A DNA stretch of 64,000 nucleotides from contig CAYOCJ010000002.1 of the NCBI GenBank assembly GCA_964402565.1, positions 316,659 through 380,658 of the forward strand, read 5' to 3'. This DNA comes from an uncultured Gammaproteobacteria bacterium. Lineage in GTDB: Bacteria; Patescibacteriota; Patescibacteriia; UBA1558; 2-01-FULL-52-15. Positions 8,874-58,236 of this stretch are shown here, one piece after another; position 1 is the first letter of the stretch; each line of letters starts with the position of its first letter. The translations under genes and the position numbers were made by a program. Below the pieces are notes generated by a model. It was not told where the DNA came from and did no database searches. It worked only from the letters and a program-made list of their open reading frames with translations.

Positions 8874-8929
8874 TCGAGGGGACGCCAACACGAGGAGCCC
8901 CGTGCCAGACTAATAATCTGCGCGGGGCT

Positions 8930-9277: not shown

Positions 9278-9340
9278 GCCCAGAGTGTAGCATGGAGATA
9301 CTGTTGGTACAACATTTCGACTTGTGATAGTATAATCGTT

Positions 9341-10234
9341 ATGAAAAAGTATTTGCGATCTCGGAACGTCTGGCTGCAGGTAAGCTTGGTCGCTCTTGCA
9401 TTGGTTATCGTCTACAGCATCATCGGCCTCTACGGCGCACAACCGAAAACAAAAACGCCTGCCGGCATGCCGGTTTCAGCGACGATTTATCCGGTCTATG
9501 ATCTGGTCCGCCGTGTCGGCGGCGAAAAAGTGAATGTGCAATTACTGCTGCCTGAGGGCGATGGCCCGGATGTCTTGACGAGTCTGTATAATGGCGTTGA
9601 CCTGAGCAAGAGCCGTGCACTTTTCGCCGTTGGTTTGAATTATGATACCGCAGGTCTTCCGCCAGACCAGACGTCAAAGCTCACGACCTTGGATAAGGAT
9701 ATCAACGTATTACTGGAACAAGGCTCGGTAGGCAGTCCGTATTACTGGTTATCAGTCCGTAACGCTGAACAGATGACAAAGACCATTGCAGACAAGCTCG
9801 CTGAACTTGATCCTGGCTCGAAGGACTATTACATGAAACAGCGCGATATTGTTATTGAACAGCTCTCCGCGATCGATACAGAAATAGCATCCCTGCTCGC
9901 CAAAGTTCCAAGAAAGTCTCTGGTTATCTATGGCTATGATTGGGGCTACTTCGCGCAGGATTATGGTTTAGATATTGCAGCCTATGAACCCGCAGGCGAT
10001 ATCAGCGAAGCGCGGGTCGAGGAATTGAGAAAGACAATGAGCGATAATGGCTTGATCGCTATTTTCTCTGACATCAGATTATCGCCGACTGCGTTCTTGC
10101 CGGCAATGAGCAAGAAGTATTTTTCAGTGTATAACCTCGATGTGTACGGCGGGGTTGAGGATAGGAAAAGCTATGACCTTACCATGGCGTATAATGCGAA
10201 AACCATATACCAGGGCCTGACCGGCGCACCCTAG
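9341..10234 (+). CDS. metal ABC-transporter substrate-binding protein-like (TroA/ZnuA fold), N-terminal membrane anchor
   Basis: N-terminal TM/signal segment. PVYDLVRRVGGEKVNVQLLLPEG... resembles ZnuA/TroA cluster-9 substrate-binding proteins. No cognate permease or ATPase is adjacent. Confidence 0.45.
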   Translation: MKKYLRSRNVWLQVSLVALALVIVYSIIGLYGAQPKTKTPAGMPVSATIYPVYDLVRRVGGEKVNVQLLLPEGDGPDVLTSLYNGVDLSKSRALFAVGLNYDTAGLPPDQTSKLTTLDKDINVLLEQGSVGSPYYWLSVRNAEQMTKTIADKLAELDPGSKDYYMKQRDIVIEQLSAIDTEIASLLAKVPRKSLVIYGYDWGYFAQDYGLDIAAYEPAGDISEARVEELRKTMSDNGLIAIFSDIRLSPTAFLPAMSKKYFSVYNLDVYGGVEDRKSYDLTMAYNAKTIYQGLTGAP

Positions 10235-13357: not shown

Positions 13358-13712
13358 GGGTATAGTATACGAGATTATTGTATTAGTTGCGAGGTTATCT
13401 GGCGGTGAGTAGCCTTTAAGTAGATATTGACAAAAAGCTAATATTATGGTATTATACTAATATTAGCATAAAGTTCCTTTAAATAAGTCTAGTCTTGCAA
13501 CTAGCTGGCATCAAAGCCTTTCTCCAACCTGTCATGGGTCGCGGAAAGGTCATGCGCCCCATACAAACTTTGGGCGCTCGCCAGAGCCGATGCGCATCTT
13601 TCTAGATACGACCGGCTCTCCGATTTTCGCTCCGCGAAACATCGGAGCTGCTTGCAATACTAGACATCCTAGTCAAAACTTCCAGCGCCTAGGGCGCTTC
13701 AAGGGGACTCCC

Positions 13713-14093
13713 ATGGGACAGGAACTTTTCATGTTCAGTTACGGAACCGCAGCGATCATCGTCGGGTGCATTCTCGGTATGGCGCTCGTCGCTTCGCCGA
13801 AGAAGCCCGTGCCGAACAAAGCGATCGTATTCACTGCCGCTGCATGCGCCGGAGCTGTGATCCAGGCGATCTTGCTCCATCGGTGGCAACACTCATCGTC
13901 CAGCTTCTTCATCAACCATGATCTCACACGCGGCGGTGAGTACCTCTACTACGCCTGGTTCGCGCACCTCACCCTCATCGTGGCCACATTCGTGGTCTCG
14001 TTGCTGGTGACGTACATCGGCGCGTACATGTCGATGATCTCGTCGTACAGCAAACAGTCGGACGCCCATCGTCGTCCCAACACTTTCCTCTAA
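13713..14093 (+). CDS. small membrane protein (hypothetical), GC-rich islet
   Basis: RBS aaggggactccc-ATG at MGQELFMF. 3-4 TM segments. The ORF-track N-terminal extension lacks an RBS. Confidence 0.45.
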   Translation: MGQELFMFSYGTAAIIVGCILGMALVASPKKPVPNKAIVFTAAACAGAVIQAILLHRWQHSSSSFFINHDLTRGGEYLYYAWFAHLTLIVATFVVSLLVTYIGAYMSMISSYSKQSDAHRRPNTFL

Positions 14094-25789: not shown

Positions 25790-25962
25790 TTTTTTAGTAT
25801 AGCAAAGACTGAGTTTGAAATCTATTCGATCGATATCTATTCAAAGCGCAGTACATTCAAAAAAATGGGCTTTTTTAACCCATTGACGATTTTATCTATT
25901 GTTAGCCAAAATTTTTTTATGCTTTTTTGCTAAAGTTAGCTTTATTTTTTTAGTTGTTAACC

Positions 25963-25991
25963 TTGACAAAATTGATGATTTAGTCTATGAT
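25963..25991 (+). promoter_or_regulatory. sigma70 promoter (TTGACA-17-TATGAT) at the entry to the large GC-rich island
   Basis: ttgaca at 25963-25968, a 17-nt spacer, tatgat at 25986-25991. A second TTGACA lies about 70 nt downstream. Confidence 0.55.
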
Positions 25992-26128
25992 ATATAGTTT
26001 GCAGAGTGTGCCATATCGGTACATTTGCGCAAGCACTTTGACAATTCGATAAGGAGAAATAACAGAAAAAACAAAAAAATCTGAAGTTTGAACGAAACTG
26101 TTTTCCTACATCGGAAGGAGATACTGAT

Positions 26129-26446
26129 GTGTCAAACGTAGAGAGTGTTTTCGATCTCGTAGTAGCGCTTGTCATAGACTTCGACGTCGGCCATAATGGG
26201 CCGTTCGCGATCTGCCGAGTAGTCAACATCGAAGATTTTCCCAATGCACTACCGGTCGATACTTCGGTCACGTTTCATCTTCGCTATTGGAAGAATGATG
26301 CGCCATTGACTGGAGGATCGCACGTTTTGCTGGGCAACTTGTCCAGCAAGCGTAAGGGATGGCGAGCTTTCGATGCTCGCATGTTCCGGCCTTCGAGTCC
26401 TCAACAAGCAACCAGCAACGAGCAGCAAATCAAAAGGGAGAACTGA
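26129..26446 (+). CDS. hypothetical protein (island gene A)
   Basis: RBS ggaaggagatactg-ATG. The stop overlaps the next start in TGAcATG. Confidence 0.55.
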   Translation: MSNVESVFDLVVALVIDFDVGHNGPFAICRVVNIEDFPNALPVDTSVTFHLRYWKNDAPLTGGSHVLLGNLSSKRKGWRAFDARMFRPSSPQQATSNEQQIKREN

Positions 26447-26447
26447 C

Positions 26448-27872
26448 ATGCCGACCAGTCAGCCGCAAGGCGGTAGCACGATCGACATCCTCGACCAGTT
26501 GGAGCGCGACACCAGTTCCTCGCTCTCGAAGATCCAGCAGCGCACCGAAGGACCGACCATGGACCAGAAGCTCGAAGAGCTCCAGGCCGAGATGGATCGG
26601 GCTGTTCAGATCAAGGACGACAAGGAGCGCGACATCCGGGTGCGCGTGTTGACCACGACGCTCGAGAAGTTGCGTGAAGACGCGGCGCAGGAGGAGCAGG
26701 ATCTGGCCCAGGCCGTTCTCGGCCTGAATGCCAAGATCGAATCCCTCGGCGACGAGTACAAGGTGCTGAACGTTCAGGCTCCGGAAGAGCTGGCTGTCAT
26801 CACCCGCGCGCAGGCTCGGCTCACCGAAGCGAAGAATGCCGTTCCGAATCGCGAGATCGAACTGGCGAATATCGCCGAGATGTGGTTCGAGTTCCGGCGC
26901 CGCAAGGCCCGGGCCAAGCTCGAGGAGCAGATCAAGCTGGCGGAGGCGCAAGTCCAGAACGCGGAGCAGGGCTTGGTGGAGGCTCAGGCCGAATCCAAGC
27001 GTATGCAGCGTCAGCGCCTGATGAAGGCGAAGATGGATGCGTCCATCCAGGAGTTCACGGTCCGCGTCGCGAAGACCATCGAGATCATGCAGCGGCGCGT
27101 GGAAGTCGTGAAGGGCGAGATCGCCTCGGTGAAGGCGCGGAAGGCTCAGAGCTTCGACATCAAGGAGCGGGCCGCCAAAGCCGTCGAGGACCTCGACGCG
27201 AAGCTGAACCAGGCGGAAGCCCAGCTGAAGGACGAGGAAGAAAAACTCACGAGTCTCGCCAACGGGACCGAAGAGTACGCGAAGCAGACCGAGATCATCT
27301 CGAACAAGCGAGCCGAGGTCGAAGAGCTTCGCGGGCGGCGCAATACCGCGCACGTGCTCTTCCAGAGCAAGGAGCGGTTCGCCATCGAACTCGAGACGCA
27401 CGAGCGGACGCAGATGAAGCTCCGCGACAACCTGACCATGTGGATCACCTTGCTCCGTAGCGATACGGAAGCGCGCGTGACCACGTTCAAGTCCCGCCTC
27501 GAGGCCATGAAGGCCATGTCCGACCAGGACGTTGCCAAGGACCTCGACAAGCTGGGCGTCGCCATGGACCGGAACAACGCCGAATACATGGCTCAGGCCG
27601 GTGCCGTTTCCGATCGACTCCGTGTCGACCGGATGGAACAACATCCGCAGATCGTCAAGAAGCTCATGGAGATCGCGGCCGCCCAGGCTCAGGCGCATCA
27701 GGTCATTCGCGAGCGCGAAGCCGAAGTGCTCAGGGTTTTCCGCGAGAAGTACGGCATCGACCCGATGTCGACTTCCTTCTTCACCTACGCGCACCACAAC
27801 GACGGCGTGACGAGCGGTGCCCCTTCGGGCAGCGCCGGCGAGCCGTCCAGTGCGGACGTGCTCGGTCAGTAA
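26448..27872 (+). CDS. long coiled-coil protein, 474 aa (island gene B)
   Basis: RBS aaaagggagaactgac-ATG. Almost entirely E/K/A/Q/R helical heptads. No TM and no nucleotide-binding motif. Confidence 0.7.
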   Translation: MPTSQPQGGSTIDILDQLERDTSSSLSKIQQRTEGPTMDQKLEELQAEMDRAVQIKDDKERDIRVRVLTTTLEKLREDAAQEEQDLAQAVLGLNAKIESLGDEYKVLNVQAPEELAVITRAQARLTEAKNAVPNREIELANIAEMWFEFRRRKARAKLEEQIKLAEAQVQNAEQGLVEAQAESKRMQRQRLMKAKMDASIQEFTVRVAKTIEIMQRRVEVVKGEIASVKARKAQSFDIKERAAKAVEDLDAKLNQAEAQLKDEEEKLTSLANGTEEYAKQTEIISNKRAEVEELRGRRNTAHVLFQSKERFAIELETHERTQMKLRDNLTMWITLLRSDTEARVTTFKSRLEAMKAMSDQDVAKDLDKLGVAMDRNNAEYMAQAGAVSDRLRVDRMEQHPQIVKKLMEIAAAQAQAHQVIREREAEVLRVFREKYGIDPMSTSFFTYAHHNDGVTSGAPSGSAGEPSSADVLGQ

Positions 27873-27947
27873 GTAGTCTGACCCAATGGCGGCGACCCTG
27901 AGAGAAATCGAAGGGTCGCCGCATACGACTCTTCTAAGGAGAGATCC

Positions 27948-29087
27948 ATGCCGGAAGATCAACTGAACCCTAGCGAGCCGGATATCGTGCTGCTCGCGAG
28001 TCAGGACGAATACGCCAAGTATTACAACTTGATGACGGTCGTATTGTCCCGGCTCGTCGCGTGGCATCGAAAACTGGCGAGCCAAGGGCAATACGAGGCA
28101 GGGGTCATCGAGCAATTCGTCGAGCGTCTGCTCTACACCATCCGCGTTCTGCGGATGAAGTACACGTACAGCGTCGAGCACGGACTCAAGGTCGATCTCA
28201 CTGACTCGGGTTTTCCCGCAGCCATGGAGATCATGCACCTGGAAACCGATCTCGCGCGAAAGGAAGAGGTCCTGAGGGCCCTTCCTCCGGCGTCGTTCTT
28301 GAAACTCAGCATGTTGGATACGCTCCTCAAGGAGCGGGTCGAACCGCGCGAGCTTCTGTGGCAGATGTCTCAACGTGCCTACATGACCATGCTGGATCCG
28401 GATAAAGTGTTTCTCACGTTCAGTCCTGGCAAGCTCGAACAGCGAGGCCAGGATGTGAATGAACGGCAATATGTGTTCTCGTGGGGCTGCTACGATTTCC
28501 AGAAAAGCAGACCCTACGTGCACGTCATGACGTTCACCCAAGACCGATCGAGCGACCCGCTGCATTTGGAAGGGCCGACCTATGCCCACTTCATGCAGGT
28601 GGTCAAGCACGAGGGTTCCCGCGCACCCGACCTGGCCATCCTCGCTGCGTCTATCGACGACGCTCTCGAGGATATTCATCCGAAGGTCATCAAGCGGGTG
28701 TGTATCGGACCCATGTTCTCACGCTCAGTGGTTCACGGTTCAGAGGTTACGACCGATCCGCTCTACCGCAGTTTGGCCGAACTTCTGTACCAACAGAGCA
28801 AGGCCGACGACGAGTTCCTCCTCGCCTTCAAGGAAGAGGTAGTGTTCTCGAGAGAGCAGCAGGTTACAAAAAAGCTGTTCGCGTCGTCCCGCGTCCGGGA
28901 GATCTTCCACATTCCCGTGGATGACCCCGAGTGTTACCAGAGCCGCGCTTCGGTCGTGCATCGAAGCGTCATTCTGTCGCATGCATTGCTGCAACATATC
29001 GACGGGCTTGGCGATTCTGCCCTGCCCGGCTTCGAGAAGTTCGGCAAGATCACGTATTCGGCAGACGGAGGACTCTATGGCGTCTAG
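27948..29087 (+). CDS. hypothetical protein, 379 aa (island gene C)
   Basis: RBS aaggagagatcc-ATG. Its stop overlaps the start of the AAA ATPase gene. Confidence 0.65.
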   Translation: MPEDQLNPSEPDIVLLASQDEYAKYYNLMTVVLSRLVAWHRKLASQGQYEAGVIEQFVERLLYTIRVLRMKYTYSVEHGLKVDLTDSGFPAAMEIMHLETDLARKEEVLRALPPASFLKLSMLDTLLKERVEPRELLWQMSQRAYMTMLDPDKVFLTFSPGKLEQRGQDVNERQYVFSWGCYDFQKSRPYVHVMTFTQDRSSDPLHLEGPTYAHFMQVVKHEGSRAPDLAILAASIDDALEDIHPKVIKRVCIGPMFSRSVVHGSEVTTDPLYRSLAELLYQQSKADDEFLLAFKEEVVFSREQQVTKKLFASSRVREIFHIPVDDPECYQSRASVVHRSVILSHALLQHIDGLGDSALPGFEKFGKITYSADGGLYGV

Positions 29088-31035
29088 CCAGTCCGGTGTA
29101 ACGATCGAGGAAGCCGATGTTCGGAAATTCCTCGACCGTGCGAACCCCCTGCTTGCTGCAGCGAAATGGCAGCCAAAGCAGGATCCGTTCGCGAAAAGCA
29201 AAGAGCAAGGAGCAGGCGGGTGGCGCGACTCTACAACGTTGCCGCTCGCTGAGCAGTCGATTTCGATCGTCTCCTTCACACGGAAGCTCGCCGATGATGC
29301 GCTTCTGCTGCCCGATGGCTTCAACCACGTGTTGGGCATCGTACGCAAAGGCTTGTGTCTCGGCATGCATCTGTGCCAGCAGTACACCAGATTCTCCGGC
29401 TTGGAGGAACTGGTGCGGCTGAACCAGCGCGGCGCGCTGACAGGCGAGCAGAAAACTCGCTTCAGCGAGATGCAGGTCACGGCAGCTGCTGTCGCTGCGT
29501 TTTCCTCAGCCTACTATGTGGTCTGGAGCCTTTCAGACTACAGAACGGATGAGACTTCAGGGGTCAATATCAAGCTCGACGGTTTACCCGAGCTTGCGCT
29601 CGTGAATCCGGTTTCCGCCTTCCAGTGCATGGTGTTCTATTACGCCGCGTATCTGGAGCGGAGCGGGCAAGTTGCGAGCGAGCTGGATTTCATCGCGATG
29701 ACGAACCTGTATTTCAAGGCCGTCATTGACGAGATCCAGCGGAAAGCAGAATCGTTCAGGCAGGCGGAATCCTTCACAGGCCAGACCTATCGTTTGGCCG
29801 GCAGCGAGTTCTCGATCAACGGGTTCGCGGCCGACCTCAAGGCAGGCAATGGCAGCGTGGAGTTCAACCGCGTCGACCTCGACGACATCGTCGGCAACCA
29901 AGACGCGAAGCACAAAGCGTTGCGGCTCGCCGAACGATTGATGTGCTACGACCTGGTGGCGCAGCGGAATCCCATGAGCGAACTCGGAGGCTTGGCCTTC
30001 GTTCGCATGGGCCACGGCGTGCCGGGTACGGGCAAGACGATGCAGATCTCTGCGACCGCTACCATGTTGTACGATTGGTGTACGGCACTCGGGATACCGT
30101 TCTTCTTCAATCCGATGCCGGATAACATCGTCTCAACGTTCCAGGGCGGTTCAGCAGAACGGGCTATCGCTTGGATGAAGCCCCTCTTCGATCCGAAGCG
30201 GATCATCTATGCGCCGGCCGATGACGCAGAGAATAACTACGAGGACCGGACACGGCAGGGAGTTTCCGCCGGCGTTCGAGAGGTCATCGGAGTCTTTCTG
30301 CGCCATACCGAGGGCGCCTACGCTATCAAGCGGGGCAACTCGGTGATCGAACTCTTCACGAATATCCCGGACCAGATCGATCCGGCCGTTCTTTCACGAG
30401 TCCTTGACCGGTTCGTGATCGGCGGTGCGCTCGAGTGGTACGACTTCGTGGACCAGGACTATCTCTGGTGGCGCAAGCTCAAGGCGGTAGATCCGACGTT
30501 CATCGACATGGAGGATCCGAAAGGATTCACCTATCTCGAGAAGCAGAAGGTGGTAGCGAGCCTGGCTGACGCTTACTCGGCTCAGACCCAGGAAGTGACA
30601 CCTTCGGTGAAGGAGCTCGATCGCATCATTGCGGAAGTCGAATCACAGTATCCGCGGCACGGCCATGAATTTTATGGCCGGCTGTTCGCGGCCTTCAAGA
30701 AAGCGTTCCCGGGGTTTTCCTCGAGGGACGTTCGAAATATCCAGACCCTCATCAGCGAGCGGATCCTGGACTTCGGGTTGCCAGCCGAATGGCTCAAGGA
30801 CCCGGAGATGTTCTATCGCAAGGACTACGCCACAAAGCTCGGGATGCTGAAGGAGCTCATGCGCGAGTCCATGCGCGGCTTGCATTTCGCCGAGGTGCGT
30901 TGGCAGGAGACCTATCGCTATCTCGTCCAGTTCCTGCGAATTCAGGAAACGGGCAGCGAGCGAGAGATCAAGAGAATGGCCGAGCACATTCGGCTGCAAG
31001 CCGAAGCGACAAGGCGAGTCAGTTCGCGATCGTAA
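29077..31035 (+). CDS. classical AAA-family ATPase with about 300-aa uncharacterised N-domain (island gene D)
   Basis: RBS ggaggactct-ATG overlapping the gene C stop. DIVGNQDAK, then Walker A GVPGTGKT, and a second region of homology ELFTNIPDQIDPAVLSRVLDRF. The Walker B is atypical (IIYAPADDAE). Confidence 0.8.
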   Translation: MASSQSGVTIEEADVRKFLDRANPLLAAAKWQPKQDPFAKSKEQGAGGWRDSTTLPLAEQSISIVSFTRKLADDALLLPDGFNHVLGIVRKGLCLGMHLCQQYTRFSGLEELVRLNQRGALTGEQKTRFSEMQVTAAAVAAFSSAYYVVWSLSDYRTDETSGVNIKLDGLPELALVNPVSAFQCMVFYYAAYLERSGQVASELDFIAMTNLYFKAVIDEIQRKAESFRQAESFTGQTYRLAGSEFSINGFAADLKAGNGSVEFNRVDLDDIVGNQDAKHKALRLAERLMCYDLVAQRNPMSELGGLAFVRMGHGVPGTGKTMQISATATMLYDWCTALGIPFFFNPMPDNIVSTFQGGSAERAIAWMKPLFDPKRIIYAPADDAENNYEDRTRQGVSAGVREVIGVFLRHTEGAYAIKRGNSVIELFTNIPDQIDPAVLSRVLDRFVIGGALEWYDFVDQDYLWWRKLKAVDPTFIDMEDPKGFTYLEKQKVVASLADAYSAQTQEVTPSVKELDRIIAEVESQYPRHGHEFYGRLFAAFKKAFPGFSSRDVRNIQTLISERILDFGLPAEWLKDPEMFYRKDYATKLGMLKELMRESMRGLHFAEVRWQETYRYLVQFLRIQETGSEREIKRMAEHIRLQAEATRRVSSRS

Positions 31036-31088
31036 CCAGGTAGCCAGAGCGGGGAAACTCGCTCTGGCGCCTATCCTAAGGAGTAGGA

Positions 31089-32354
31089 ATGCAGAAGCTC
31101 ATCGAAGCCGGCCTCATCGGAGATGGCTTGGTCACGGTCGATTCGCCAGCGATGGTGGATCGATACAACCAGGCGCTCGAGGAGAGCGGCGTATCGAGGA
31201 CACAGCTCACTGCGTTCACGATCGACGGCATCGGCTGGAGTCCGGAGGTGGCGACGGAATGCAATAACCGTTTCTACCTGTCGGTCGGTCTGCCGAATCA
31301 GGTCGGCATCATCTTGTCGCCTGATCAGGAAGGGAAACCGATCTACTTCCCTTTCAGAAGCTTCGATCGAGACCTGATGAGCATCTACTTCAAGCGGTTC
31401 GCGCAGGAGATCGCTGATGTGACGAGGCGATCACCGATCGTCCTCGACATCGACCAGGGCGTGACGGATTACGAAACGCCACTGGATCTCCTCCTGACAA
31501 ATCAGTTCGTTGTGCATTCCTCAGCCGGGAAGCTGGCAGAGGAGGCGCGAGTTCAGCAGGACATCGTCGGACGCTTCATGGCGGACGACGAAACCTGGTT
31601 CGACACCGCGATCCGCCAGCAACTGATCGACAGCGGCAAACAGCATGGCGATCTACGGTACCGCAAGGTAACGATTCCAGATATGCGCTATGACGACGTG
31701 CGGGACTTTTATACCCGTGCGTTCGGCGGCGCGTACCTGTTTCGGAGCCACGGCGGCCCCGAGATCCTCGTACTGGAAGATGCGAGCCTTGTCTCACAAA
31801 CGAAGCGTCGAGGCGTTGTCGTGTACACCACGACGTCTACCAAAGCGCTCGATCAACTCCGCGACTGCGGATTGATCGACATCGACCTCGCGTGGTATCG
31901 GGATCACCCCGAGCAACTGCAACATCTGTACGACAGTTTGGTCGGCGACTTCTTGTGTCGCGAACGGCCTGAGATGGTCCTGGACGATGTGCCGGCGACG
32001 CAGCGCAAGAAATTGCTGCTGTCGCTCAAGGCATCGGCGCCACCGGCTATCTTCGACCTCGAGCGGCTCATGAAGAAGCTCAAGAGCGATTCGCAAGCGC
32101 TGCCGACGGTGCTGTCGACAGATCTCCAGCATGTGCTGATGCATCCGGCTGCTACCGTGTTGAACGGCAGCAGGCGCGTCATCTGGCAGCTGCTGGCCGG
32201 TTATCAGCCGTGGAATGTTTCACGGCAGTATTTCTACAGACGGAACGAATTCGTGGAACAGATCGCCAACTGGCCCGAGCCGATGCAAAGCTGGGCCATC
32301 GAGCTGATCCAGCGGCGGTATCGTCGCGTCATGGATCAGCAAAAGGAGCAATGA
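31089..32354 (+). CDS. hypothetical protein, 421 aa (island gene E)
   Basis: RBS ctaaggagtaggaATG. No recognised domain. Confidence 0.65.
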   Translation: MQKLIEAGLIGDGLVTVDSPAMVDRYNQALEESGVSRTQLTAFTIDGIGWSPEVATECNNRFYLSVGLPNQVGIILSPDQEGKPIYFPFRSFDRDLMSIYFKRFAQEIADVTRRSPIVLDIDQGVTDYETPLDLLLTNQFVVHSSAGKLAEEARVQQDIVGRFMADDETWFDTAIRQQLIDSGKQHGDLRYRKVTIPDMRYDDVRDFYTRAFGGAYLFRSHGGPEILVLEDASLVSQTKRRGVVVYTTTSTKALDQLRDCGLIDIDLAWYRDHPEQLQHLYDSLVGDFLCRERPEMVLDDVPATQRKKLLLSLKASAPPAIFDLERLMKKLKSDSQALPTVLSTDLQHVLMHPAATVLNGSRRVIWQLLAGYQPWNVSRQYFYRRNEFVEQIANWPEPMQSWAIELIQRRYRRVMDQQKEQ

Positions 32355-32355
32355 C

Positions 32356-33000
32356 ATGCCGGCATTTGCGAGCTATCTCCTGTCCATGGTGATTCTCTAC
32401 TTCCTTTCCGGCGCCATCCTGTACAACCTGGATATCGCTTTCGGAGTCCCCGTCGTGACGTGGTGGTATAACCTCACGCACAAGAGCCCCTTGCCTGACG
32501 GCCAGGAGAAAGGTTTCATCTTTCGCCGGCCGACCAAGGTGAAGGGAGTATGGGCGGTTCTGATCTCGTCGGCGTTCAGCATCGCGGTGATGTACTACAG
32601 CCACTCAGTCAATATCGTCGTCGAGGTCTTCGCCTGGGCAGTCCAGGTTCCGTGCATGCTTTTCGGCATGCACATCCTGGGTCGTCCATTGGGAAACCTT
32701 TGGAGCAAGCGCGAGCATGTCTATCAGAAGCTCGACGCACTCGAGTCCGGCGAGACCACACTCAGCGCGGAAGCTCGCAGGATTGCGACTACCGTCGCCG
32801 GCAGAGCACGCGGTCTGAAGGACGAGCTGGCTGCGGCACCAAAGCCTCAGCCTGTGTCCGTTGAGCCTGCTCCGGTGCCGGTGGAGTCCGCGCCCGTCGT
32901 TGTGAACGACAGCACGGCTGCTCCCGAACCCCAGCCCGAAGAAGATCCGACGGCTGGGATGAAGAAGTTCAACGACAAGTACGGCATCAAGAGTCGTTGA
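32356..33000 (+). CDS. membrane protein with Pro-rich C-terminal tail (island gene F)
   Basis: TGAcATG coupling to gene E. 3-4 TM helices. PEPQPEE / PAPVPVESAPV low-complexity tail. Confidence 0.65.
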   Translation: MPAFASYLLSMVILYFLSGAILYNLDIAFGVPVVTWWYNLTHKSPLPDGQEKGFIFRRPTKVKGVWAVLISSAFSIAVMYYSHSVNIVVEVFAWAVQVPCMLFGMHILGRPLGNLWSKREHVYQKLDALESGETTLSAEARRIATTVAGRARGLKDELAAAPKPQPVSVEPAPVPVESAPVVVNDSTAAPEPQPEEDPTAGMKKFNDKYGIKSR

Positions 33001-33001
33001 C

Positions 33002-34624
33002 ATGGGCCCTTCACTTCAAGAGAAGCCTCGAGCGATCGAGGCAGAGAAAGACAACCACGGAGCGCTCTACTGGTTCGCCAGGCGAGTGCTCGGAGGAGTT
33101 GGTCGCTTCTACGGCCGTCACTGGTTCGCAGGAACGATCTTCCTCGTACTGTTTGTCGGAATCACGTTCTGGCTGCGGCCTCTCTACCAGCCCTATGTGC
33201 TGGGGGTCCGCAAGTTCAGCTTCCTGGTTCCGCTCTTCGCGCCGATCGCCTTCTTCCTTTCATGGGCGGTCCGCAAGCGCTCACTGCACTTCAAGATCCT
33301 GATCTGGGCGGTCATCATCGCCCTGATCGGCGGTGCCTGGAAGTGGGAGTCGGGCGCCTACCACTACTGCAAGCTCTACCTCAGATATCGGGATCTCCCG
33401 AAGACAGAGCTCACGCAGTTGCCGCTTACTGATCATGAGCGGATCCAGCCACTGCACTCGGTGTATACGCAGGCGCTGGAGAACATGACGGATGTCGAAC
33501 GGCCGACACGGTTCGACTTCGTCCGGATCGGTGACGAGTATCACTTCACTGCCGCGATCGAGCCAGCAAAGTCGATCAGGCAGACTGTGGGATCGATCAC
33601 CGAACTCCTGTCAGTTCCTGGTACGGTTCCGGCGGCGAATTTCGCTCCCGAGAGTCGTATCAAAGTTCATTTCAATGAAGGCGAGACGATGTACTTGTCG
33701 CACAATATCTTCACTTCCGTGCGGCGAGCATTCAGCCCCTCGCTCTTCTGGTCCTATGAGCCATCCGATGTCTTCCGCGTCCAGAACGACAAGGGAGAAT
33801 GGGTACAAGTCGTATCGCTCATCCACTGGACCGGCATCCTGTTCCCGCGTCCGGAGTTCGGCGGAGTGTATATCGTGCCGCAAGCTGATAGCTCGCCGGC
33901 CGAAGCGCTTCGCAGGACGCTCTGGGGCAGCGGGACATGGGTTCCACCGGAACGTCTGGCTGAGCATCCGTTTCTCATCGGCCAGAACACGGTCGCGTTC
34001 GACATCAGTCGTTTCGCGGCAGAAAGCTTCCGGTTCCAATACGGCTTCTGGGCTCCTGCTCCCGGGTATCACTACAACGACATTCGCATTCCGGAGTTAC
34101 CCGGTGATCAGAACGCCATGCCGTATACCTGTTTCTTCCGTCTCAGCGAGGCGAAGGGGCAAGACAAGCTCTATCAGTACTTCGCCATGGAGCCTTACGA
34201 CGCTGACAAGCAGGGTCTGACGCTTTCGATCTTTTACCCTGCTGACGGCATCGGCTCTGTCTACTACTATCGGCACAATGAACGCGGAGGAGTCGTATCC
34301 GGCGTCTCGGCCATCGCCGCTAAGGTGATGGAATCCAAGAAGCAATACGACTGGACGCGACATCGGCCGGTGGAACACCTGCCCTACATCAAGGACATGG
34401 CTGGAGGCCGACGCTTCTTCTGGAAAACGACGGTCATCACGATGAAAGACCCGATCGTCGACGCCAAGGGGAACAAGGACTCTACCCAGTTCTACATCGC
34501 GGGCACGGTGCCGGAGATCGTCTTCACCGACACCGTCACGAAAATGCCTACTTGGGTCGACTCGCATCACCCGGAAACGTGGGCACAAGACCTCGAAACC
34601 CAGATGAAAGATATCTGGAAGTAG
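33002..34624 (+). CDS. membrane-anchored protein with large extracytoplasmic domain, 540 aa (island gene G)
   Basis: TGAcATG coupling to gene F. Three N-terminal TM segments, then about 420 aa rich in aromatic residues. Confidence 0.65.
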   Translation: MGPSLQEKPRAIEAEKDNHGALYWFARRVLGGVGRFYGRHWFAGTIFLVLFVGITFWLRPLYQPYVLGVRKFSFLVPLFAPIAFFLSWAVRKRSLHFKILIWAVIIALIGGAWKWESGAYHYCKLYLRYRDLPKTELTQLPLTDHERIQPLHSVYTQALENMTDVERPTRFDFVRIGDEYHFTAAIEPAKSIRQTVGSITELLSVPGTVPAANFAPESRIKVHFNEGETMYLSHNIFTSVRRAFSPSLFWSYEPSDVFRVQNDKGEWVQVVSLIHWTGILFPRPEFGGVYIVPQADSSPAEALRRTLWGSGTWVPPERLAEHPFLIGQNTVAFDISRFAAESFRFQYGFWAPAPGYHYNDIRIPELPGDQNAMPYTCFFRLSEAKGQDKLYQYFAMEPYDADKQGLTLSIFYPADGIGSVYYYRHNERGGVVSGVSAIAAKVMESKKQYDWTRHRPVEHLPYIKDMAGGRRFFWKTTVITMKDPIVDAKGNKDSTQFYIAGTVPEIVFTDTVTKMPTWVDSHHPETWAQDLETQMKDIWK

Positions 34625-34790
34625 AGGCACAATTCGCACCTTCAATAATAAGCGCATGAAGCGCGGCGGGATCCAAACTTGGGTCCCGCTTTTTCTTTTC
34701 CAGTACTTGACAAAATCTATAATTTACAGTACTCTATCAAGTTCACATTTAAACAGAAAATCGTCCTTTCCCAAGAAAGGGGAGTGCCAG

Positions 34791-36059
34791 ATGATCGAGT
34801 TTATCAGCAGATACGTATCGGTCCTGGGCCTCCCGCAAAGCTATGCCCAGGCGCTGACTCATGTCATCGCCGTTTTGTTCGTTGCGGCTTTGAGCTTCCT
34901 GTCCAATCTGGTCGCGAAACGGATCATCGTTCGGGTCATGAATTTCATTGTCAGCCGGACGAAGAACCAGTGGGACGACGTGCTCGCCAAGTGGAAAGTG
35001 TTCACCAGGCTCTCGCATCTCGTACCGGTTCTGGTGATCTGGTATCTCGCACCTCAGGCGATTCCGCCATCATCATTTCTCGAGTCGCTCATCGAGCGCG
35101 CTGTCGGCCTGTACGTCGTATGGGTAAGCGTTTCGATCATGTGGGCGGTTACCAATGCTGTCCGCGATGTATACGACCGCTATCCGATCTCGAAACGGAT
35201 CGGCATCACGAGCTTTATCCAGACGGCGAGGATCCTGCTGGTCATTCTGGCCAGCATCCTGTCGCTGTCGATCGCGCTCGCAAAGCCGTTCGGAGTTTTG
35301 ATCGGCGGCATCATCGCGTCCGCTGCGGTCTTCGCGCTGCTCTTGCGCGAACCGATCCAGAATTTCGGAGCCAGTCTGTGGATCGTCTCTCATCAACTCG
35401 TCCGCAAGGGCGAACGGATCGAGATCCAAAGCTGCCAGGTGGATGGCGAGGTCGTCGAGATCAGCCTTCACACCATCGTCGTTCGTCAGAATGACATGAC
35501 GCTGAAAGCGTTTCCTACCTACAAGCTCCTGAGCGAGGGCGTGAAGAACTGGCGCGGCATCACTTCAGCCGGAGGACGGCGGATCCAGCGTTCGATCTGG
35601 ATCGACATGGGAACCATCAAATTCCTCAGTGGCGACGCGCTTGTCCGCCTCGAACAGATCCCGCTCTTGAAACCGTATTTGGATACAGAGCTCGAAGCCT
35701 CGATGCACAGATCGGAGAAAGGAGTCGCGCCGGCTCAACCGTTCGTACATGGTTTTGCCCTGACGAACACGAGCCTGTTCCGTATCTACGTCGACCTGTA
35801 CCTGCGCCAACATCCCGGCATTCATCAAGTGCATACGATTCTGGTGCGCCAGCTGCAGCCGAAAGAATGCGGCTTGCCCATCGAGATCTATGCGGCCACG
35901 AATACGACCGACTGGCCGGAGCACGAGCGCATTCAGGCGGAGATCTTCGATCATCTGCTTGCGGCGCTTCCGTACTTCGAGCTCAGGGTGTACCAGGGAA
36001 TCTCGGGTGCGGATGTGGCGCGTGCCGCACTTGCTTCTGCCGAGATAGAGCGGAAATAG
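34791..36059 (+). CDS. mechanosensitive ion channel, MscS family (island gene H)
   Basis: RBS aaaggggagtgccag-ATG. MscS pore helix plus beta-domain signature (FGVLIGGIIASAAVFALLLREPIQNFGASLWIV...GERIEI...GEVVEISLHTIVVRQNDMTLKAFPTYKLLSEGVKNW). Confidence 0.85.
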   Translation: MIEFISRYVSVLGLPQSYAQALTHVIAVLFVAALSFLSNLVAKRIIVRVMNFIVSRTKNQWDDVLAKWKVFTRLSHLVPVLVIWYLAPQAIPPSSFLESLIERAVGLYVVWVSVSIMWAVTNAVRDVYDRYPISKRIGITSFIQTARILLVILASILSLSIALAKPFGVLIGGIIASAAVFALLLREPIQNFGASLWIVSHQLVRKGERIEIQSCQVDGEVVEISLHTIVVRQNDMTLKAFPTYKLLSEGVKNWRGITSAGGRRIQRSIWIDMGTIKFLSGDALVRLEQIPLLKPYLDTELEASMHRSEKGVAPAQPFVHGFALTNTSLFRIYVDLYLRQHPGIHQVHTILVRQLQPKECGLPIEIYAATNTTDWPEHERIQAEIFDHLLAALPYFELRVYQGISGADVARAALASAEIERK

Positions 36060-36068
36060 GAGACAGTC

Positions 36069-36311
36069 ATGCTCATGTTCTGCGGCATTTTCTGCTTCAG
36101 CATCGTGGTCATCGGATACTTCGCGTGGCGCTGGAAAGAGCCCGCATGGAATATCCCGGTAGCAGCGCTGCTCGTTGCACTCGGCGTTGAGTTCGGGATC
36201 TGGCTCGATAGCAAGAGCTCGATCCTGTTCTTGGTCTTCGCTGCACTCTGCATCGCTGGCGGCTTCTGGTGCCTCAAGCCTCAAATCCGCCCGCCGACCA
36301 CCCCGCGTTAA
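36069..36311 (+). CDS. small 2-TM membrane protein (island gene I)
   Basis: RBS ggagacagtc-ATG. 80 aa. Confidence 0.5.
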   Translation: MLMFCGIFCFSIVVIGYFAWRWKEPAWNIPVAALLVALGVEFGIWLDSKSSILFLVFAALCIAGGFWCLKPQIRPPTTPR

Positions 36312-36366
36312 CGATCAAAGCCGCCTGGGAGTACAGAAACCTTTCACCTGCCTCAAGGAGGGCACA

Positions 36367-36726
36367 ATGACCGATCCGAATGAACGCAGACAGAAGATGA
36401 AGGACGATCTCGCGAGCCTCTTCGGCGGAGCCAAAGCCGAGCTCAAGCACTTCGTCGACAAGGCGGAGGGGCACATCGACCGGGTGGTCGATGGAGCCAG
36501 GGAGCTTCACGAGGACTTCCACGCCGATCCGGAGGTCAAGCGCTTCAAGCGTAGGTTTAAATCCGGCCTGGCGAGTCTGGGCAAGAAGTTGGTGCACAAG
36601 CACGGCACCAAGGCGGAGAGCGAGGCTCTGCACAGGGCGAATCGCAAGAAGAAGGTGAAGGAAAGTCAGACGCCTCCGTCGGAACCCCCGGCGTCGCCTC
36701 AGACGCCGCCCGAGTCCGGCAGCTAG
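36367..36726 (+). CDS. small basic Lys-rich protein with Pro-rich tail (island gene J)
   Basis: RBS caaggagggcaca-ATG. 119 aa. The ORF-track N-terminal extension has no RBS. Confidence 0.5.
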   Translation: MTDPNERRQKMKDDLASLFGGAKAELKHFVDKAEGHIDRVVDGARELHEDFHADPEVKRFKRRFKSGLASLGKKLVHKHGTKAESEALHRANRKKKVKESQTPPSEPPASPQTPPESGS

Positions 36727-36976
36727 ACTCATCGTTCATTGCATCAATCGATCCGCGAGGATCGCGTCATCCTGAAATGGATGGGAACCCGCTGGTACGC
36801 CAGTCGATAAGGGTTCCTTTTTATTTTTAATACCATTGACTTTTTTAACTCTTTTTGGTACTTTTCGCTGTCTTCTTTTGTCCATTAACATCGTGTTTTG
36901 AGAAACAACTGAAAGGGGGTGTTACAGTTAATTTCGGCGCCGGTATGGTAGTTTTTCCACGAGCGGAGAAAAAGAT

Positions 36977-37234
36977 GTGACAAGAGCAGATACTCCTACT
37001 GAAGCGCGCGTCCATGACGTGATTAACGGTAAGCACGGTTTTTTTGCTGTAACAGTAGATGAATCCGGCAAGATCGAAGGCTCGATCACGGTCTCGCTTG
37101 AAGAGAAAGACAATGTCTGGCTCGAAGCAAGGCATCCAAAGCGAGGTGAAATACTCCTGCTGGAGGACATCACCACAAAGCCTGCCGGATGGCGGGCTGG
37201 TCAGGCACGGTTCCTTCGTCCGACTGATCGGTAG
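36977..37234 (+). CDS. small hypothetical protein, GTG start, in a lower-GC patch inside the island (gene K)
   Basis: ggagaaaaagat-GTG. 85 aa. Preceded by the CATTGACTTTT...TTTTTGGTAC motif. Confidence 0.4.
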   Translation: MTRADTPTEARVHDVINGKHGFFAVTVDESGKIEGSITVSLEEKDNVWLEARHPKRGEILLLEDITTKPAGWRAGQARFLRPTDR

Positions 37235-37298
37235 TTCCCACATGCTATTCCGGCATGTGGACAGCAACTAGCATCGAGAAAACAGAAGGAGTTGGATC

Positions 37299-38090
37299 TT
37301 GGACGACAACAACGAAATCCGAAGGCAGAAGTTGGCCGCCATCTTCAGATGGGGGCTGGGTCTTGTCGGTGCTGCGATCATCTCGCCTGTCGTTTTTTTG
37401 GCGGTGAAAGGCATCGTCGGGCTTGCGCTGGCAGTCGGCATCGGTTTCGCGGTCATTCAACTCGCGCCGGTCGTTGCGATGAAGCTCGCCAATTGGCGTA
37501 TGAAGCTCATCATCGACGAAGCCGAGAAGAATCCGATCGAGACCCTGCGCAACGAAACGCTCGACGCTGCCAAAGCTATCGACAGCAAAGACCAAGAGCT
37601 CGAAGACTGGGATACCGAGCTTCGGACATACGACGACGAACTCGTCAGCATCAAGCGGGATTATCCGGATGAGGCTGCCTCTTTCGAGCGCGTCAGCGAG
37701 GAGATGCATACTGGTCTGACGCAGGCTCGTGAGGAACAACAGCGTGCCCGTTGGGATCTCGAAGAAGCGAAGCGAACCGTCGACAAGATGGAGCGTCTCT
37801 ACAAAATGGCGCTCGCCGCACAACGGGTCAAGAGCTTCTCGAAGACCGCAGAAGAGGCGGTCATGGCTGACATCAGGCAGAAGGCAGCCATGGATTCTGT
37901 GCGCACCAATCTGAACCGGTCGCTTTCGCAGCTCAACACTGCGATGGCGAAACGGGCTGCCCGCCCCGCATTGACGGTTGCAGGAATGGGCCGGCAAGCG
38001 CTTGGCGCTGGTCGTCCCGCTACGATCGACATGTCCACTGATGCGAATCCCGCGAAGGTTCCGGTTCCGCGCGTTCGCGATAAGGAGTGA
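37299..38090 (+). CDS. membrane-anchored coiled-coil protein (island gene L), TTG start
   Basis: gaaggagttggatc-TTG. Two N-terminal TM helices, then a charged helical region. Confidence 0.55.
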   Translation: MDDNNEIRRQKLAAIFRWGLGLVGAAIISPVVFLAVKGIVGLALAVGIGFAVIQLAPVVAMKLANWRMKLIIDEAEKNPIETLRNETLDAAKAIDSKDQELEDWDTELRTYDDELVSIKRDYPDEAASFERVSEEMHTGLTQAREEQQRARWDLEEAKRTVDKMERLYKMALAAQRVKSFSKTAEEAVMADIRQKAAMDSVRTNLNRSLSQLNTAMAKRAARPALTVAGMGRQALGAGRPATIDMSTDANPAKVPVPRVRDKE

Positions 38091-38092
38091 AC

Positions 38093-38227
38093 GTGGGAAA
38101 CAAAAAGTATCGCATCGGCATCACGTTGCTCCTGCTCCTCATCCTGTTCCTCTGTTACGTCTACATCCAGAGCAATTCGCAGTCGTCCGATCCTCAGCAA
38201 GACGAACAAGGCATTCGGCTCCACTGA
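38093..38227 (+). CDS. possible 44-aa hydrophobic micro-protein (not in the ORF track)
   Basis: GTG 5 nt after the AAGGAG that overlaps the stop of gene L. Reads VGNKKYRIGITLLLLLILFLCYVYIQ..., a single TM. Confidence 0.3.
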   Translation: MGNKKYRIGITLLLLLILFLCYVYIQSNSQSSDPQQDEQGIRLH

Positions 38228-38258
38228 GCTGATCACACTGAACAAGGAGACCAACGAA

Positions 38259-39203
38259 ATGAACCTGAGCAAGTCCATCAATCGCATCATGTTCGCCCTG
38301 GCGCTGGTCTGCGTCTCGACGCAGCTCTTCGCGCAGACCCCGTTCAAGGTTGCGTCCAACTCGTCGAGCGGCACGTACGACAGGATGCTCGGCGAGATCA
38401 TTGCCGTCTGCAACAGCGACGAGCTGGAGATCGTGAGCGCTGACGTGAAGGGCGGGGCTGTCGGCAACCTGGACGCGCTCTACAACAACAAGGTGAACGC
38501 CGCGTTCATGCATTCCGACGTGTTCATGTCGAGTGCACAGGCCGACCCGAATTACAACCGATTCCAGACCTTGGTCGCGCTCTATCCCGAGCCGATCCAC
38601 GTGTTGGCGCTGAAGGTATCGAAGACCACGGAGAACGGCGCGCTTCACTGGGGGAAGGCTGCCTTCGGCAGTCTTGCGGAGACCAAGGGCTACAAGGTCG
38701 GTGCAGCAGGTGGCGGTGTCGTGACCGCCAGAATCTTGCAAGGGCAAGGTGAAGGCGGTTTCAGCGTCGTGCCATACAATGACGGCAATGAAGTCATTGC
38801 CGCGCTCGACAAGGGCGAGATCGCTGCGGCGATTTTCGTTGGAGCAGCTCCGCTGCCGAACCTGGAAAAACTGGATAAGCAGAAGTACAAGCTCATCCCG
38901 ATCGGCGCAACGATCGAGAACAAGGTCCAGGGCGTGTATCGTCCGGCCTCGGTGAATTACCCGGGCCTGACAAGCGGCCCGCTGCACACACTCGCGCCCA
39001 TGGCCACGCTCATGACCAAGAAGTACACCACGCCGGCCATGATCGACATGCAGCGCAAGTTCAGGGATTGCTTCAATACCCACCTGGGTGAGCTGAAGGA
39101 CGGCCATTCGCCGAACTGGGAATTCGTCGAGGCCGGCGATCACGGCGTACTCACCTGGTACGAGATCCCGCCTGCAGGTCCTGCGGCTCCCAAGAAGAAG
39201 TAA
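38259..39203 (+). CDS. periplasmic solute-binding protein (TAXI-TRAP / PBP2-like fold), secreted (island gene M)
   Basis: Signal peptide MNLSKSINRIMFALALVCVSTQLFAQ. G-rich binding-protein pattern (GAAGGGVVTARILQG...). No transporter partner nearby. Confidence 0.5.
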   Translation: MNLSKSINRIMFALALVCVSTQLFAQTPFKVASNSSSGTYDRMLGEIIAVCNSDELEIVSADVKGGAVGNLDALYNNKVNAAFMHSDVFMSSAQADPNYNRFQTLVALYPEPIHVLALKVSKTTENGALHWGKAAFGSLAETKGYKVGAAGGGVVTARILQGQGEGGFSVVPYNDGNEVIAALDKGEIAAAIFVGAAPLPNLEKLDKQKYKLIPIGATIENKVQGVYRPASVNYPGLTSGPLHTLAPMATLMTKKYTTPAMIDMQRKFRDCFNTHLGELKDGHSPNWEFVEAGDHGVLTWYEIPPAGPAAPKKK

Positions 39204-39257
39204 GTTCCGCGTTTTCTCAATAACACTGTCTAAAAAGGACTGAGCAGACCTGCTGCT

Positions 39258-39294
39258 CCCCGCCATGTCGCATGACCTGGCGGGTTCTTTTTTT
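39258..39294 (+). terminator. rho-independent terminator closing the island operon
   Basis: cccgcca...tggcggg followed by ttctttttttac. Confidence 0.7.
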
Positions 39295-39357
39295 ACTTGG
39301 CTAATTTCATTCCTTACTATATACTAGTCGCGTGAACCTAAGTATTAAAAGGTAACT

Positions 39358-58231: not shown

Positions 58232-58236
58232 GCAAG

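Follow-up and report, generated by a model that had tools for sequence, protein, structure and literature searches.

Classical-clade AAA ATPases are, to our knowledge, few in bacteria, and each of those that have been studied (FtsH and the proteasomal ATPases of the ARC/Mpa type) defines a major pathway. In Vps4/ESCRT-III and in the pairs formed by PspA/Snf7 proteins and AAA+ ATPases, a classical-clade AAA protein stands beside a helical coiled coil and membrane proteins. The MoxR/RavA operons (Bat, RavA-ViaA), of which the Bat operon is common in Bacteroidota, are multi-gene bacterial operons arranged round an ATPase and membrane proteins. PspA/Snf7-AAA+ architectures other than the type described here have been reported, in a study that does not settle how assembly is regulated by those PspA homologues that have no AAA ATPase associated with them (PMC11237479).

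The locus that resembles these arrangements, and that is the subject of this analysis, lies in a 64,000-nt stretch of contig CAYOCJ010000002.1, the whole of which is referred to as the window and the numbering of which is used throughout. The block under study, rich in guanine and cytosine (GC), occupies approximately 26-39 kb. Within it, positions 26448-34624 form one operon of six genes and 8.2 kb, hereafter the cassette, with the genes B, C, AAA, D, TM (transmembrane) and E in this order. A first-pass annotation of the same DNA had proposed that the entire block, 14 genes in 13 kb, was a candidate undescribed system centred on the AAA ATPase. The proposal holds insofar as no counterpart of the system was found in Pfam (a domain of unknown function, DUF, excepted), PDB, PADLOC, PHROGs or the literature searched, but the system consists of six genes and not 14. 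The cassette matches no described system; its motor is of a known type and it is as a system that it is new.

The six-gene cassette and its relatives

A scan with the DUF6638 profile, which recognizes the product of gene D, yielded 386 species when one genome per species was considered, and 84 loci were compared by tblastn with the proteins of the window. A match was obtained for D in all 84 loci, for C and the ATPase in 82 each, for E in 79 and for B, always as the first gene, in 78. The matched cassette genes invariably stood in one order. The remaining block proteins, namely that of open reading frame (ORF) A, the MscS-like channel, the small proteins, the 263-aa protein and the binding protein, were matched only in the window's own duplicate. 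All-against-all clustering of the ORFs of 17 diverse loci and the window recovered exactly six recurrent cassette families, and the only other recurrent clusters were antisense shadows and generic ABC ATPases. The small TM protein, too divergent for tblastn, was recognized by clustering in 16 of 18 diverse loci, and 62 of the 63 Flavobacteriaceae-type loci carry a divergent counterpart of 171 aa. The neighbourhoods in Bdellovibrionota, Buchananbacteria and Pelagicoccus have the six cassette genes in common and nothing else; the order in these three is a coiled coil of approximately 440 aa, a protein of approximately 380 aa, a 650-aa ATPase, DUF6638, a small membrane protein and a protein of approximately 530 aa. 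The order of the cassette is the same in at least seven bacterial phyla.

The genes are closely packed. The 11-nt overlap between the stop of C and the start of the ATPase gene in the window recurs in 10 of 16 diverse loci, and the gaps between D and TM and between TM and E, 1 nt each in the window, are short elsewhere or replaced by overlaps. C is tightly translationally coupled to the ATPase. Full-length homologues of every cassette protein number in the hundreds, and for two of the six proteins folds were predicted with a predicted local distance difference test (pLDDT) value >90.

In 51 of the 63 Flavobacteriaceae-type loci the cassette is flanked upstream by one and the same ABC-F gene, which indicates a stably inherited chromosomal locus, unlike a defence island. 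In other phyla the neighbours are housekeeping genes, for example hrcA-grpE-dnaK-dnaJ, lytB and tdk, and the cassette is also present in the small genomes of Patescibacteria. Its spread over many phyla at approximately 50% identity implies horizontal transfer. The cassette is a discrete unit that is horizontally mobile and often vertically stable.

Several copies are modified. A Nudix hydrolase gene (Pfam NUDIX, 8e-12; 8817-9410 of locus L037) lies between the ATPase and DUF6638 genes in 53 of the 63 Flavobacteriaceae-type loci, and other small inserts vary among the copies, among them a lipocalin-like lipoprotein and a 23S-rRNA-IVS-type protein. The closest relative of the window cassette (L085, 1-14415; ATPase 72% identical) is a remnant in which C is reduced to its last 214 residues and the ATPase to residues 1-608. 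It is flanked by two large serine recombinases and adjoins a DUF2726/ResIII-helicase/N6_N4 methyltransferase cluster. Since the recombinases cut it on both sides, the cassette is dispensable in this relative.

The ATPase is composed of an N-terminal region of approximately 300 aa, one classical AAA module (approximately residues 305-450) and an expanded lid/C-terminal region. A profile of 33 sequences, compared with PDB, was matched weakly and by classical AAA proteins only, best by Rpt4, Pch2/TRIP13 and Vps4 (E-values 0.004-0.05), and only over residues 297-450 or thereabouts. Walker A (G314-P316-G317-T318-G319-K320) and Walker B (D382, D383, E385) are invariant in the 33 sequences. Also invariant are sensor-1 T428-N429 and the arginines R441 and R445 of the second region of homology (SRH), which align to TN...RPGR of Rpt4. 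The pore loop T354-F355-Q356-G357 (TFQGG) is likewise conserved, its counterpart in the alignment with Rpt4 being KYIG, and the lid sequence GFSSRDVRNI corresponds to GFSGADI of classical AAA proteins. Judged by its profile score, its Walker A and B motifs and its SRH, the protein is assigned to the single-module classical AAA ATPases. The earlier description as a classical AAA protein was confirmed, the PF00004 score lying above the cut-off; a novel N-domain agrees with the finding that the N-terminal 300 aa or so, like an insert of approximately 95 aa before the lid, match nothing that was searched. Neither an MIT nor any other known N-domain was detected in Pfam or by the PDB sequence profile search, and neither a TM anchor nor a protease domain by TM prediction or in Pfam. 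The ATPase has 1734 homologues at E-values ≤1e-3. The best 120 of the 1734 are 44-53% identical over their full length, apart from the window's own sequence and the 72% relative; a precomputed PF00004 match is listed for nearly all 120, and those named among them belong to Bdellovibrionota, Trueperaceae, Pelagicoccus, Buchananbacteria, Patescibacteria and Limisphaerales.

The alignment of B shows a conserved N-terminal D-x-x-D-L-L and a C-terminal YGID...SFF-x-Y. No TM segment is predicted in B, and PDB and Pfam returned generic coiled-coil noise only. A match to PspA/IM30 (PF04012) or Snf7 was not found at E-values ≤1 in 20 members of the B family, hhalign of the B profile with the window's own PspA gave a probability of 0.1, and B has no similarity to the 263-aa coiled-coil protein of the block. 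C and E lack a sequence relative in Pfam and PDB, as revealed by profiles and by a comparison of every alignment member with Pfam in which only noise was obtained at E-values ≤1. Together with D they had been described as three large proteins without a recognizable domain, which is correct for the 379-aa and 540-aa proteins but not for the 421-aa protein, a member of DUF6638 (4.9e-34). C and D are unrelated to each other. The profile of D found nothing meaningful among PDB sequences. The D family is small: 1.84 billion representatives contain 595 clusters of it at 50% identity, and the members listed are approximately 400-450 aa long without any fusion. The literature searched contained no paper on DUF6638 or PF20343, and a combined keyword search was likewise empty.

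Both TM and E are predicted membrane proteins. The tail of TM is disordered and proline-rich, ends in a conserved terminal motif, which elsewhere reads P-x4-[ML]-x2-[FY], and is predicted to be cytoplasmic. According to the positive-inside rule, we infer that the TM tail lies inside and the large domain of E outside the cytoplasmic membrane. E contains the invariant arginines R59 and R70 beside its TM helices, and its structure model is confident. No solved structural relative of E was found. In a Foldseek search of BFVD the model matched over its whole length the viral protein A0A6G5YLZ4 (588 aa; E-value 3e-14, probability 1.0, TMq (the query-based template-modelling score) 0.55, 13% identity), on which no paper was found in the literature searched. 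The best-named homologues of E are from Opitutaceae and Rubellicoccus. A 21-nt repeat, 86% identical between 27738-27758 and 32968-32988, gives both B, close to its C-terminus, and TM, at the C-terminus itself, the sequence F-x-[DE]-K-Y-G-I; in the window this sequence may represent a docking peptide shared by the two proteins.

A wider family extends beyond the six-gene type. Full-length relatives of the ATPase with 25-28% identity and 87-99% coverage were found by tblastn on plasmid-labelled replicons of Vibrio parahaemolyticus, V. vulnificus, Rhizobium, Sinorhizobium and Shinella. The V. vulnificus locus reads hyp359-hyp371-ATPase-DUF6638-mfd and has no adjacent membrane protein. That of S. 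meliloti Ak57 reads tdk-hyp362-hyp382-ATPase-(endonuclease, ISRm16)-hyp429-DUF2333, its AAA protein being 27% identical to that of the cassette by tblastn, and a third locus ends in DUF1523. In hhalign comparisons the rhizobial hyp362 aligned with B (E-value 4.3e-15), hyp382 with C (4.6e-33) and hyp429 with D (7.5e-45). From these profile alignments the rhizobial proteins, designated B', C' and D', are considered true homologues of the B, C and D families, although B' with 362 aa is approximately 100 aa shorter than B. DUF2333 and DUF1523 both contain TM segments. The exchanged partners are mutually unrelated: E has no relation to either DUF2333 or DUF1523, and TM has none to DUF1523. The rhizobial and Vibrio clusters resemble the cassette in gene order and in four homologous proteins; they differ from it in their 25-28% identity, the shorter B' and the exchange or absence of TM and E. 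They are annotated as 'hypothetical protein', 'ATP-binding protein', 'DUF6638 family protein' and 'DUF2333 family protein', and in the excerpts available of the literature that mentions DUF2333 or DUF1523, none concerns the cassette system. SMc02733, a candidate member of the rhizobial cluster, is mentioned once in the literature searched, where a ChvI-binding fragment is placed at it, and does not enter the evidence here. Since B', C', AAA and D' keep their order while the unrelated DUF2333 or DUF1523 replaces TM and E, the system consists of a cytosolic core with an exchangeable partner. The invariant core comprises the cytosolic B, C, AAA and D. What changes is the membrane partner, which is TM with E in the cassette and either DUF2333 or DUF1523 in loci of the Alphaproteobacteria type; Vibrio has no adjacent one.

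The GC-rich block and the remainder of the window

The GC content per kb is 0.53-0.62 over 26-39 kb as opposed to 0.40-0.49 in the immediate flanks, and the GC content at third codon positions (GC3) is 0.69-0.74 in the plus-strand island genes as opposed to 0.43-0.59 in most other ORFs of the window. The GC-rich block described in the first-pass annotation is therefore real, and the composition returns at the terminator at approximately 39.29 kb, as stated there. The rise does not begin at 26.12 kb but at approximately 26.3-26.45 kb, at gene B, and ORF A with a GC3 of 0.56 is backbone-like. AT-rich gaps occur within the block at 34.6-34.8 and 36.8-36.9 kb. The 14-gene block is not one operon, because a terminator directly follows E, the promoter region is repeated and AT-rich gaps intervene; it consists of at least three units, which are split by the terminator, the copy of the promoter region and the AT-rich gaps. 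The cassette is compositionally foreign coding sequence behind host-like AT-rich promoters. The promoter-like TTGACA-17-TATGAT site reported upstream of the block was recovered, as were all the listed ORFs, each on the plus strand: those of 105, 474, 379, 652, 421, 214 and 540 aa, the MscS-like channel, the small proteins and those of 263 and 314 aa. Searches of Pfam, NCBIfam, PADLOC and PHROGs found in the island only AAA, DUF6638, MscS, an NMT1_3/TAXI-like domain and phrog_27316. The features are compiled in the following table.

Features of the GC-rich block in window coordinates
Feature	Position	Strand	Properties
Promoter, sigma-70-like TTGACA-17-TATGAT	25963-25991	+	11/12 consensus match; spacer GC 0.23-0.36; predicted function
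ORF A, 105 aa	26129-26446	+	GTG start behind GGAGA; lineage-specific; not part of the conserved cassette
Gene B, 474 aa	26448-27872	+	Soluble coiled coil; first cassette gene
Gene C, 379 aa	27948-29087	+	Cytosolic; stop overlaps AAA start
Gene AAA, ATPase, 652 aa	29077-31035	+	Pfam PF00004, 27.8 bits (cut-off 21.2), residues 313-446
Gene D, 421 aa	31089-32354	+	Cytosolic; DUF6638 (PF20343), 118.4 bits (cut-off 27), profile positions 5-398 of 439
Gene TM, 214 aa	32356-33000	+	Three predicted TM helices; conserved cytoplasmic loop WY-x-x-THK-x-x-LP
Gene E, 540 aa	33002-34624	+	N-terminal amphipathic helix, three TM helices, conserved domain of ~410 aa
Terminator-like hairpin, intrinsic type, with T-run	34665-34690	+	11 pairs, 7 of them G-C; right after E, closes the cassette operon
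Promoter-region copy CTTGACAAAAT..., 38 nt	34706-34743	+	71% identical to 25962-25999; outside the cassette
MscS-like mechanosensitive channel, 422 aa	34791-36059	+	PF00924, 36.4 bits (cut-off 20.2); never beside the cassette elsewhere
80-aa protein	36069-36311	+	About three hydrophobic segments; no family match
Possible 120-aa basic protein	36364-36726	+	No family match; Logan calls an antisense 152-aa ORF instead (36274-36732, -), also without family match
85-aa ORF	36977-37234	+	C-terminus resembles that of ORF A
263-aa membrane-anchored coiled coil	37299-38090	+	phrog_27316, 3.6e-41; long hydrophobic stretch at residues 13-64
314-aa TAXI/NMT1_3-like solute-binding protein	38259-39203	+	NMT1_3, 31.4 bits (cut-off 27); signal-peptide-like N-terminus
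Hairpin CCGCCA...TGGCGG with T-run	~39258-39295	+	Right edge of the GC-rich block; loop >8 nt; read from the sequence

The 38-nt copy is the probable promoter of the next transcription unit, on the side of the MscS gene. The occurrence of this CTTGACAAAAT... repeat upstream of both gene B and the MscS gene suggests that two units of the block are served by a common promoter or operator of host type.

The junctions of the block are not an assembly artefact, since flanks and block recur in an independent Logan assembly (SRR12313480), where a 37-kb contig spans both in full with proteins that are 99-100% identical; mis-assembly, which had been named as a possible refutation, is excluded. The same block proteins are also found on a 513-kb NCBI contig. 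The Logan gene calls on the same DNA agree with the listed ORFs, except that ORF A was not called. Two antisense ORFs were noted, one of 749 aa over B and C (26430-28679, minus strand) and one of 375 aa over the binding-protein gene (38139-39266, minus strand). Both have GC-rich first codon positions (0.77-0.79) and reappear in other loci solely as the shadow of a sense gene; GC-rich coding DNA produces them as artefacts, and they are not genes.

How the block arrived is not marked in its surroundings, in agreement with the first-pass annotation. The comparison of repeats in the window found no flanking direct repeats around the block, there is no tRNA attachment site (the tRNAs closest to the block lie at 7.2 and 50.5 kb), and the Pfam scan and gene annotation identified no integrase, transposase or recombinase domain among island or flank genes. 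An integrative island or mobile element was considered and rejected on the same grounds, with no integrase or transposase, tRNA site or flanking repeats at the block.

The seven remaining ORFs of the block are neighbours and not components of the cassette. No homologue of ORF A stands beside the cassette in any of the 84 loci; ORF A has no match in Pfam, NCBIfam or PADLOC and the 85-aa ORF none in Pfam. The two have in common the C-terminal motif G..LL....K..GWRA..AR..RP (BLASTP 44% over 27 aa, pairwise E-value 7e-7), and each lies just upstream of a gene for a coiled-coil protein. Their similarity to phage ORFs upstream of a homologue of the 263-aa protein is too weak to call. The 263-aa protein itself has tblastn matches in the Ralstonia jumbo phages RP12, RP31 and phiRSL1 and in Achromobacter phage Motura. 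The 314-aa binding protein reaches 41.4 bits with TIGR02122, below the cut-off of 84.35, and is 31-33% identical to phiRSL1 ORF101 and RP12 ORF193 (E-values 1e-31 to 2e-33). In RP12 and phiRSL1 the homologue of the 263-aa protein lies one to five small ORFs upstream of that of the binding protein; the pair spans phiRSL1 ORF096-ORF101 (14908-18002 of L090) and RP12 ORF195-ORF193 (11983-13869 of L091). The two genes represent a separate conserved association that the window shares with these jumbo phages. An N_methyl/Laminin_G_3 protein is encoded near the block; like the best-named homologues of E, it hints at a host from Verrucomicrobiota or from another lineage of the Planctomycetes-Verrucomicrobia-Chlamydiae group.

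The block at 26-39 kb is not unique in the window, because further GC3-rich patches of orphan genes are present at 7.4-8.9, 13.6-14.1 and 55.9-63 kb. The last (55899-62918, GC3 0.63-0.81) encodes a minus-strand AAA ATPase of 617 aa that contains a proteasomal-ATPase OB domain (Pfam AAA, 9e-35), a 293-aa ORF with weak serpin and divDNAB matches, a PspA/IM30 protein (59278-60018, 3.7e-13) and ORFs of 347, 379 and 183 aa without a Pfam match. PspA beside an AAA+ ATPase, as found there, is a pairing of the type discussed in PMC11237479. Tandem tRNA-Met genes (7150-7224 and 7269-7345) are directly followed by two GC3-rich ORFs (0.77-0.78) of 298 and 181 aa without a Pfam match, and 7150-8873 may be a small island at a tRNA. 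One more GC3-rich orphan ORF lies at 13590-14093.

A tentative mechanism and its rivals

Among the roles that had been suggested for the locus, membrane remodelling, or some other role at the envelope, remains the best, though tentative, reading. In the model that we tentatively favour, while granting it somewhat less than an even chance, the cassette serves to maintain or remodel the cell envelope by means of an ATP-driven motor. A hexameric ring of the ATPase would thread polypeptide through a central pore lined by the TFQGG loop, with C and D acting as fixed cofactors or adaptors and the coiled coil B as scaffold or substrate. The disordered tail of TM, in a complex with E, could bring the ATPase to the cytoplasmic face of the membrane, recruitment being mediated by the short terminal motifs. 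ATP would then drive either the assembly and disassembly of B or the extraction of a client at the TM-E complex, whereby the cytoplasmic motor would be coupled to a process at or beyond the membrane. A link to the membrane is supported by the predicted helices of TM and E and by the confident model of E. In most lineages D is followed by a membrane protein.

Several points weigh against this model. Beyond the ATPase, neither homology nor experiment connects any component to a biochemical activity; B has no detectable relation to PspA/ESCRT-III, and no MIT or other known N-domain was detected on the ATPase. The hexamer, the identity of the substrate, the physical contacts and the membrane topology are all deduced. 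The Vibrio version has no adjacent membrane partner, so that a role at the membrane need not apply to all versions. In the closest relative, serine-recombinase elements have broken up the cassette, which is therefore dispensable at least there, and a patchy spread with clear horizontal transfer is typical also of conflict systems.

The last point leads to an anti-phage defence or conflict system, in which the ATPase, C and D would sense infection and TM and E, or DUF2333 or DUF1523 in their place, would be membrane-disrupting effectors of abortive infection. Horizontal transfer, as deduced from the patchy occurrence in numerous phyla, between which identities are 45-53%, fits such a system, as do the atypical composition of the window copy, the adjoining genes common to jumbo phages, and the methyltransferase/helicase pair and recombinases beside the closest relative. 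The exchangeable downstream module resembles the logic of a sensor with swappable effectors, and one viral protein has the fold of E. Arguing against defence is the finding that none of the six proteins has a match in PADLOC (PADLOC-DB 2.0) and that the domain-library scans detected no nuclease, protease, TIR, SIR2, pore-toxin or other effector domain. Moreover, the fixed position next to the ABC-F gene is unlike the variable defence islands, the neighbours in other phyla serve housekeeping, and the cassette is retained in the reduced genomes of Patescibacteria. The defence role raised earlier is therefore not supported, given the lack of a PADLOC match, the lack of an effector domain and the stable chromosomal position, and we regard it as unlikely. 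PADLOC likewise found no match for ORF A, the MscS-like channel and the binding protein, and for the 263-aa protein only weak coiled-coil noise. A viral connection was also sought directly: the six proteins have no PHROG match, the profiles of D, E and the ATPase found nothing in IMG/VR, and tblastn against INPHARED yielded nothing for the ATPase and for E a single partial match at chance level (E-value 0.4, 22% of the query). A phage or prophage origin of the cassette was rejected, the only exception being the resemblance, at the level of the fold, of A0A6G5YLZ4 to E. The cassette ATPase is unrelated to the AAA protein phiRSL1 ORF091, and E is unrelated to phiRSL1 ORF092.

A translocation or extraction machine, in which the AAA ring would unfold a client and either push it through a conduit of TM and E or draw it out of this conduit while B serves as stator or tether and not as substrate, overlaps with the envelope model and differs from it mainly in the substrate. 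The pore loop and SRH of the classical AAA type are in accord with such a machine, and so are the nearly constant membrane protein after D and the invariant R59 and R70 next to the TM helices of E together with its large conserved domain, predicted to lie outside. The cassette occurs in monoderm (Patescibacteria) and diderm hosts and hence requires no outer-membrane component. Yet TM and E are limited to three helices apiece and there is no sign of a channel; the ATPase itself has neither TM anchor nor protease domain, the cassette contains no conserved signal or cargo gene, and in Vibrio the adjacent membrane protein is missing. We consider such a machine rather unlikely. That the entire 13-kb, 14-gene block is one system would agree with the uniform GC3 (approximately 0.7) and common orientation of its genes, with the promoter-like 38-mer before both B and the MscS gene and with the similar C-termini of ORF A, upstream of B, and the 85-aa ORF, upstream of the 263-aa gene. 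It is largely refuted by synteny and very improbable: the seven extra genes do not occur within 10 kb of the cassette in 83 other loci, the terminator and AT-rich gaps divide the block, and the pair of the 263-aa and binding proteins exists in jumbo phages without the cassette. A chimeric assembly or a chance adjacency of ORFs might be suspected in GC-rich DNA, which does yield long spurious ORFs such as the antisense ones of 749 and 375 aa. This explanation, to which we assign a negligible probability, is refuted by the recovery of block and flanks in an independent assembly, by the hundreds of full-length homologues of each cassette protein, by the high pLDDT at which two of the cassette proteins fold, and by the recurrence of the antisense ORFs solely as shadows of sense genes.

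Comparison with known systems

The ATPase of the cassette has at least 1734 homologues and a fixed set of three cytosolic partners, and the cassette extends from ultra-small Patescibacteria to Flavobacteriaceae, rhizobia and vibrios; the literature searched mentions no part of it and gives none a function or a solved structure. Genetically tractable carriers are S. meliloti, V. parahaemolyticus and V. vulnificus. Since the carriers include tractable S. meliloti and Vibrio as well as cultured marine Flavobacteriaceae, the function of the cassette is directly testable, and it may bear on how bacteria remodel and maintain their membranes with ATP-driven motors.

As far as sequence searches reveal, the cassette belongs neither to the ESCRT-III/PspA systems with Vps4, nor to the PADLOC defence systems, nor to the MoxR/RavA systems with VWA proteins. 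The ATPases of the latter are of the AAA_3/AAA_5 type and are accompanied by VWA and DUF58 proteins, none of which Pfam families is present in the island. FtsH, Msp1/ATAD1, Bcs1, Cdc48/p97 and NSF-SNARE have in common with the cassette ATPase an AAA module, which in the cassette is predicted to form a single ring, together with an aromatic pore-loop motif, the sensor-1 asparagine and the two SRH arginines; the cassette ATPase, too, is proposed to act on clients at a membrane. The cassette ATPase differs from these machines in having no TM anchor, protease, double-psi-barrel or other known N-domain; the similarity is confined to the AAA module at E-values of approximately 0.004-0.05, and the partner proteins are unrelated. 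Bcs1, which translocates across a membrane, and Msp1/ATAD1, FtsH and Cdc48 in endoplasmic-reticulum-associated degradation, which extract proteins, are models for a translocating or extracting cassette, whereas NSF disassembles coiled coils in a manner comparable to the action proposed on B.

The ESCRT-III and PspA proteins are half the size of B, and B is unrelated to them in sequence; an MIT domain was not detected in the cassette, and C, D, TM and E are without counterpart in the ESCRT and Psp systems. Vps4 is nevertheless among the nearest solved sequences to the cassette ATPase, and the short terminal motifs of B could act in the manner of MIM motifs. The arrangement is most naturally read as a cycle of assembly and disassembly that is powered by ATP close to the membrane. 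The likeness of the cassette to Vps4/ESCRT-III, to the PspA-AAA+ pairs and to NSF with the SNAREs would be one of logic and not of ancestry.

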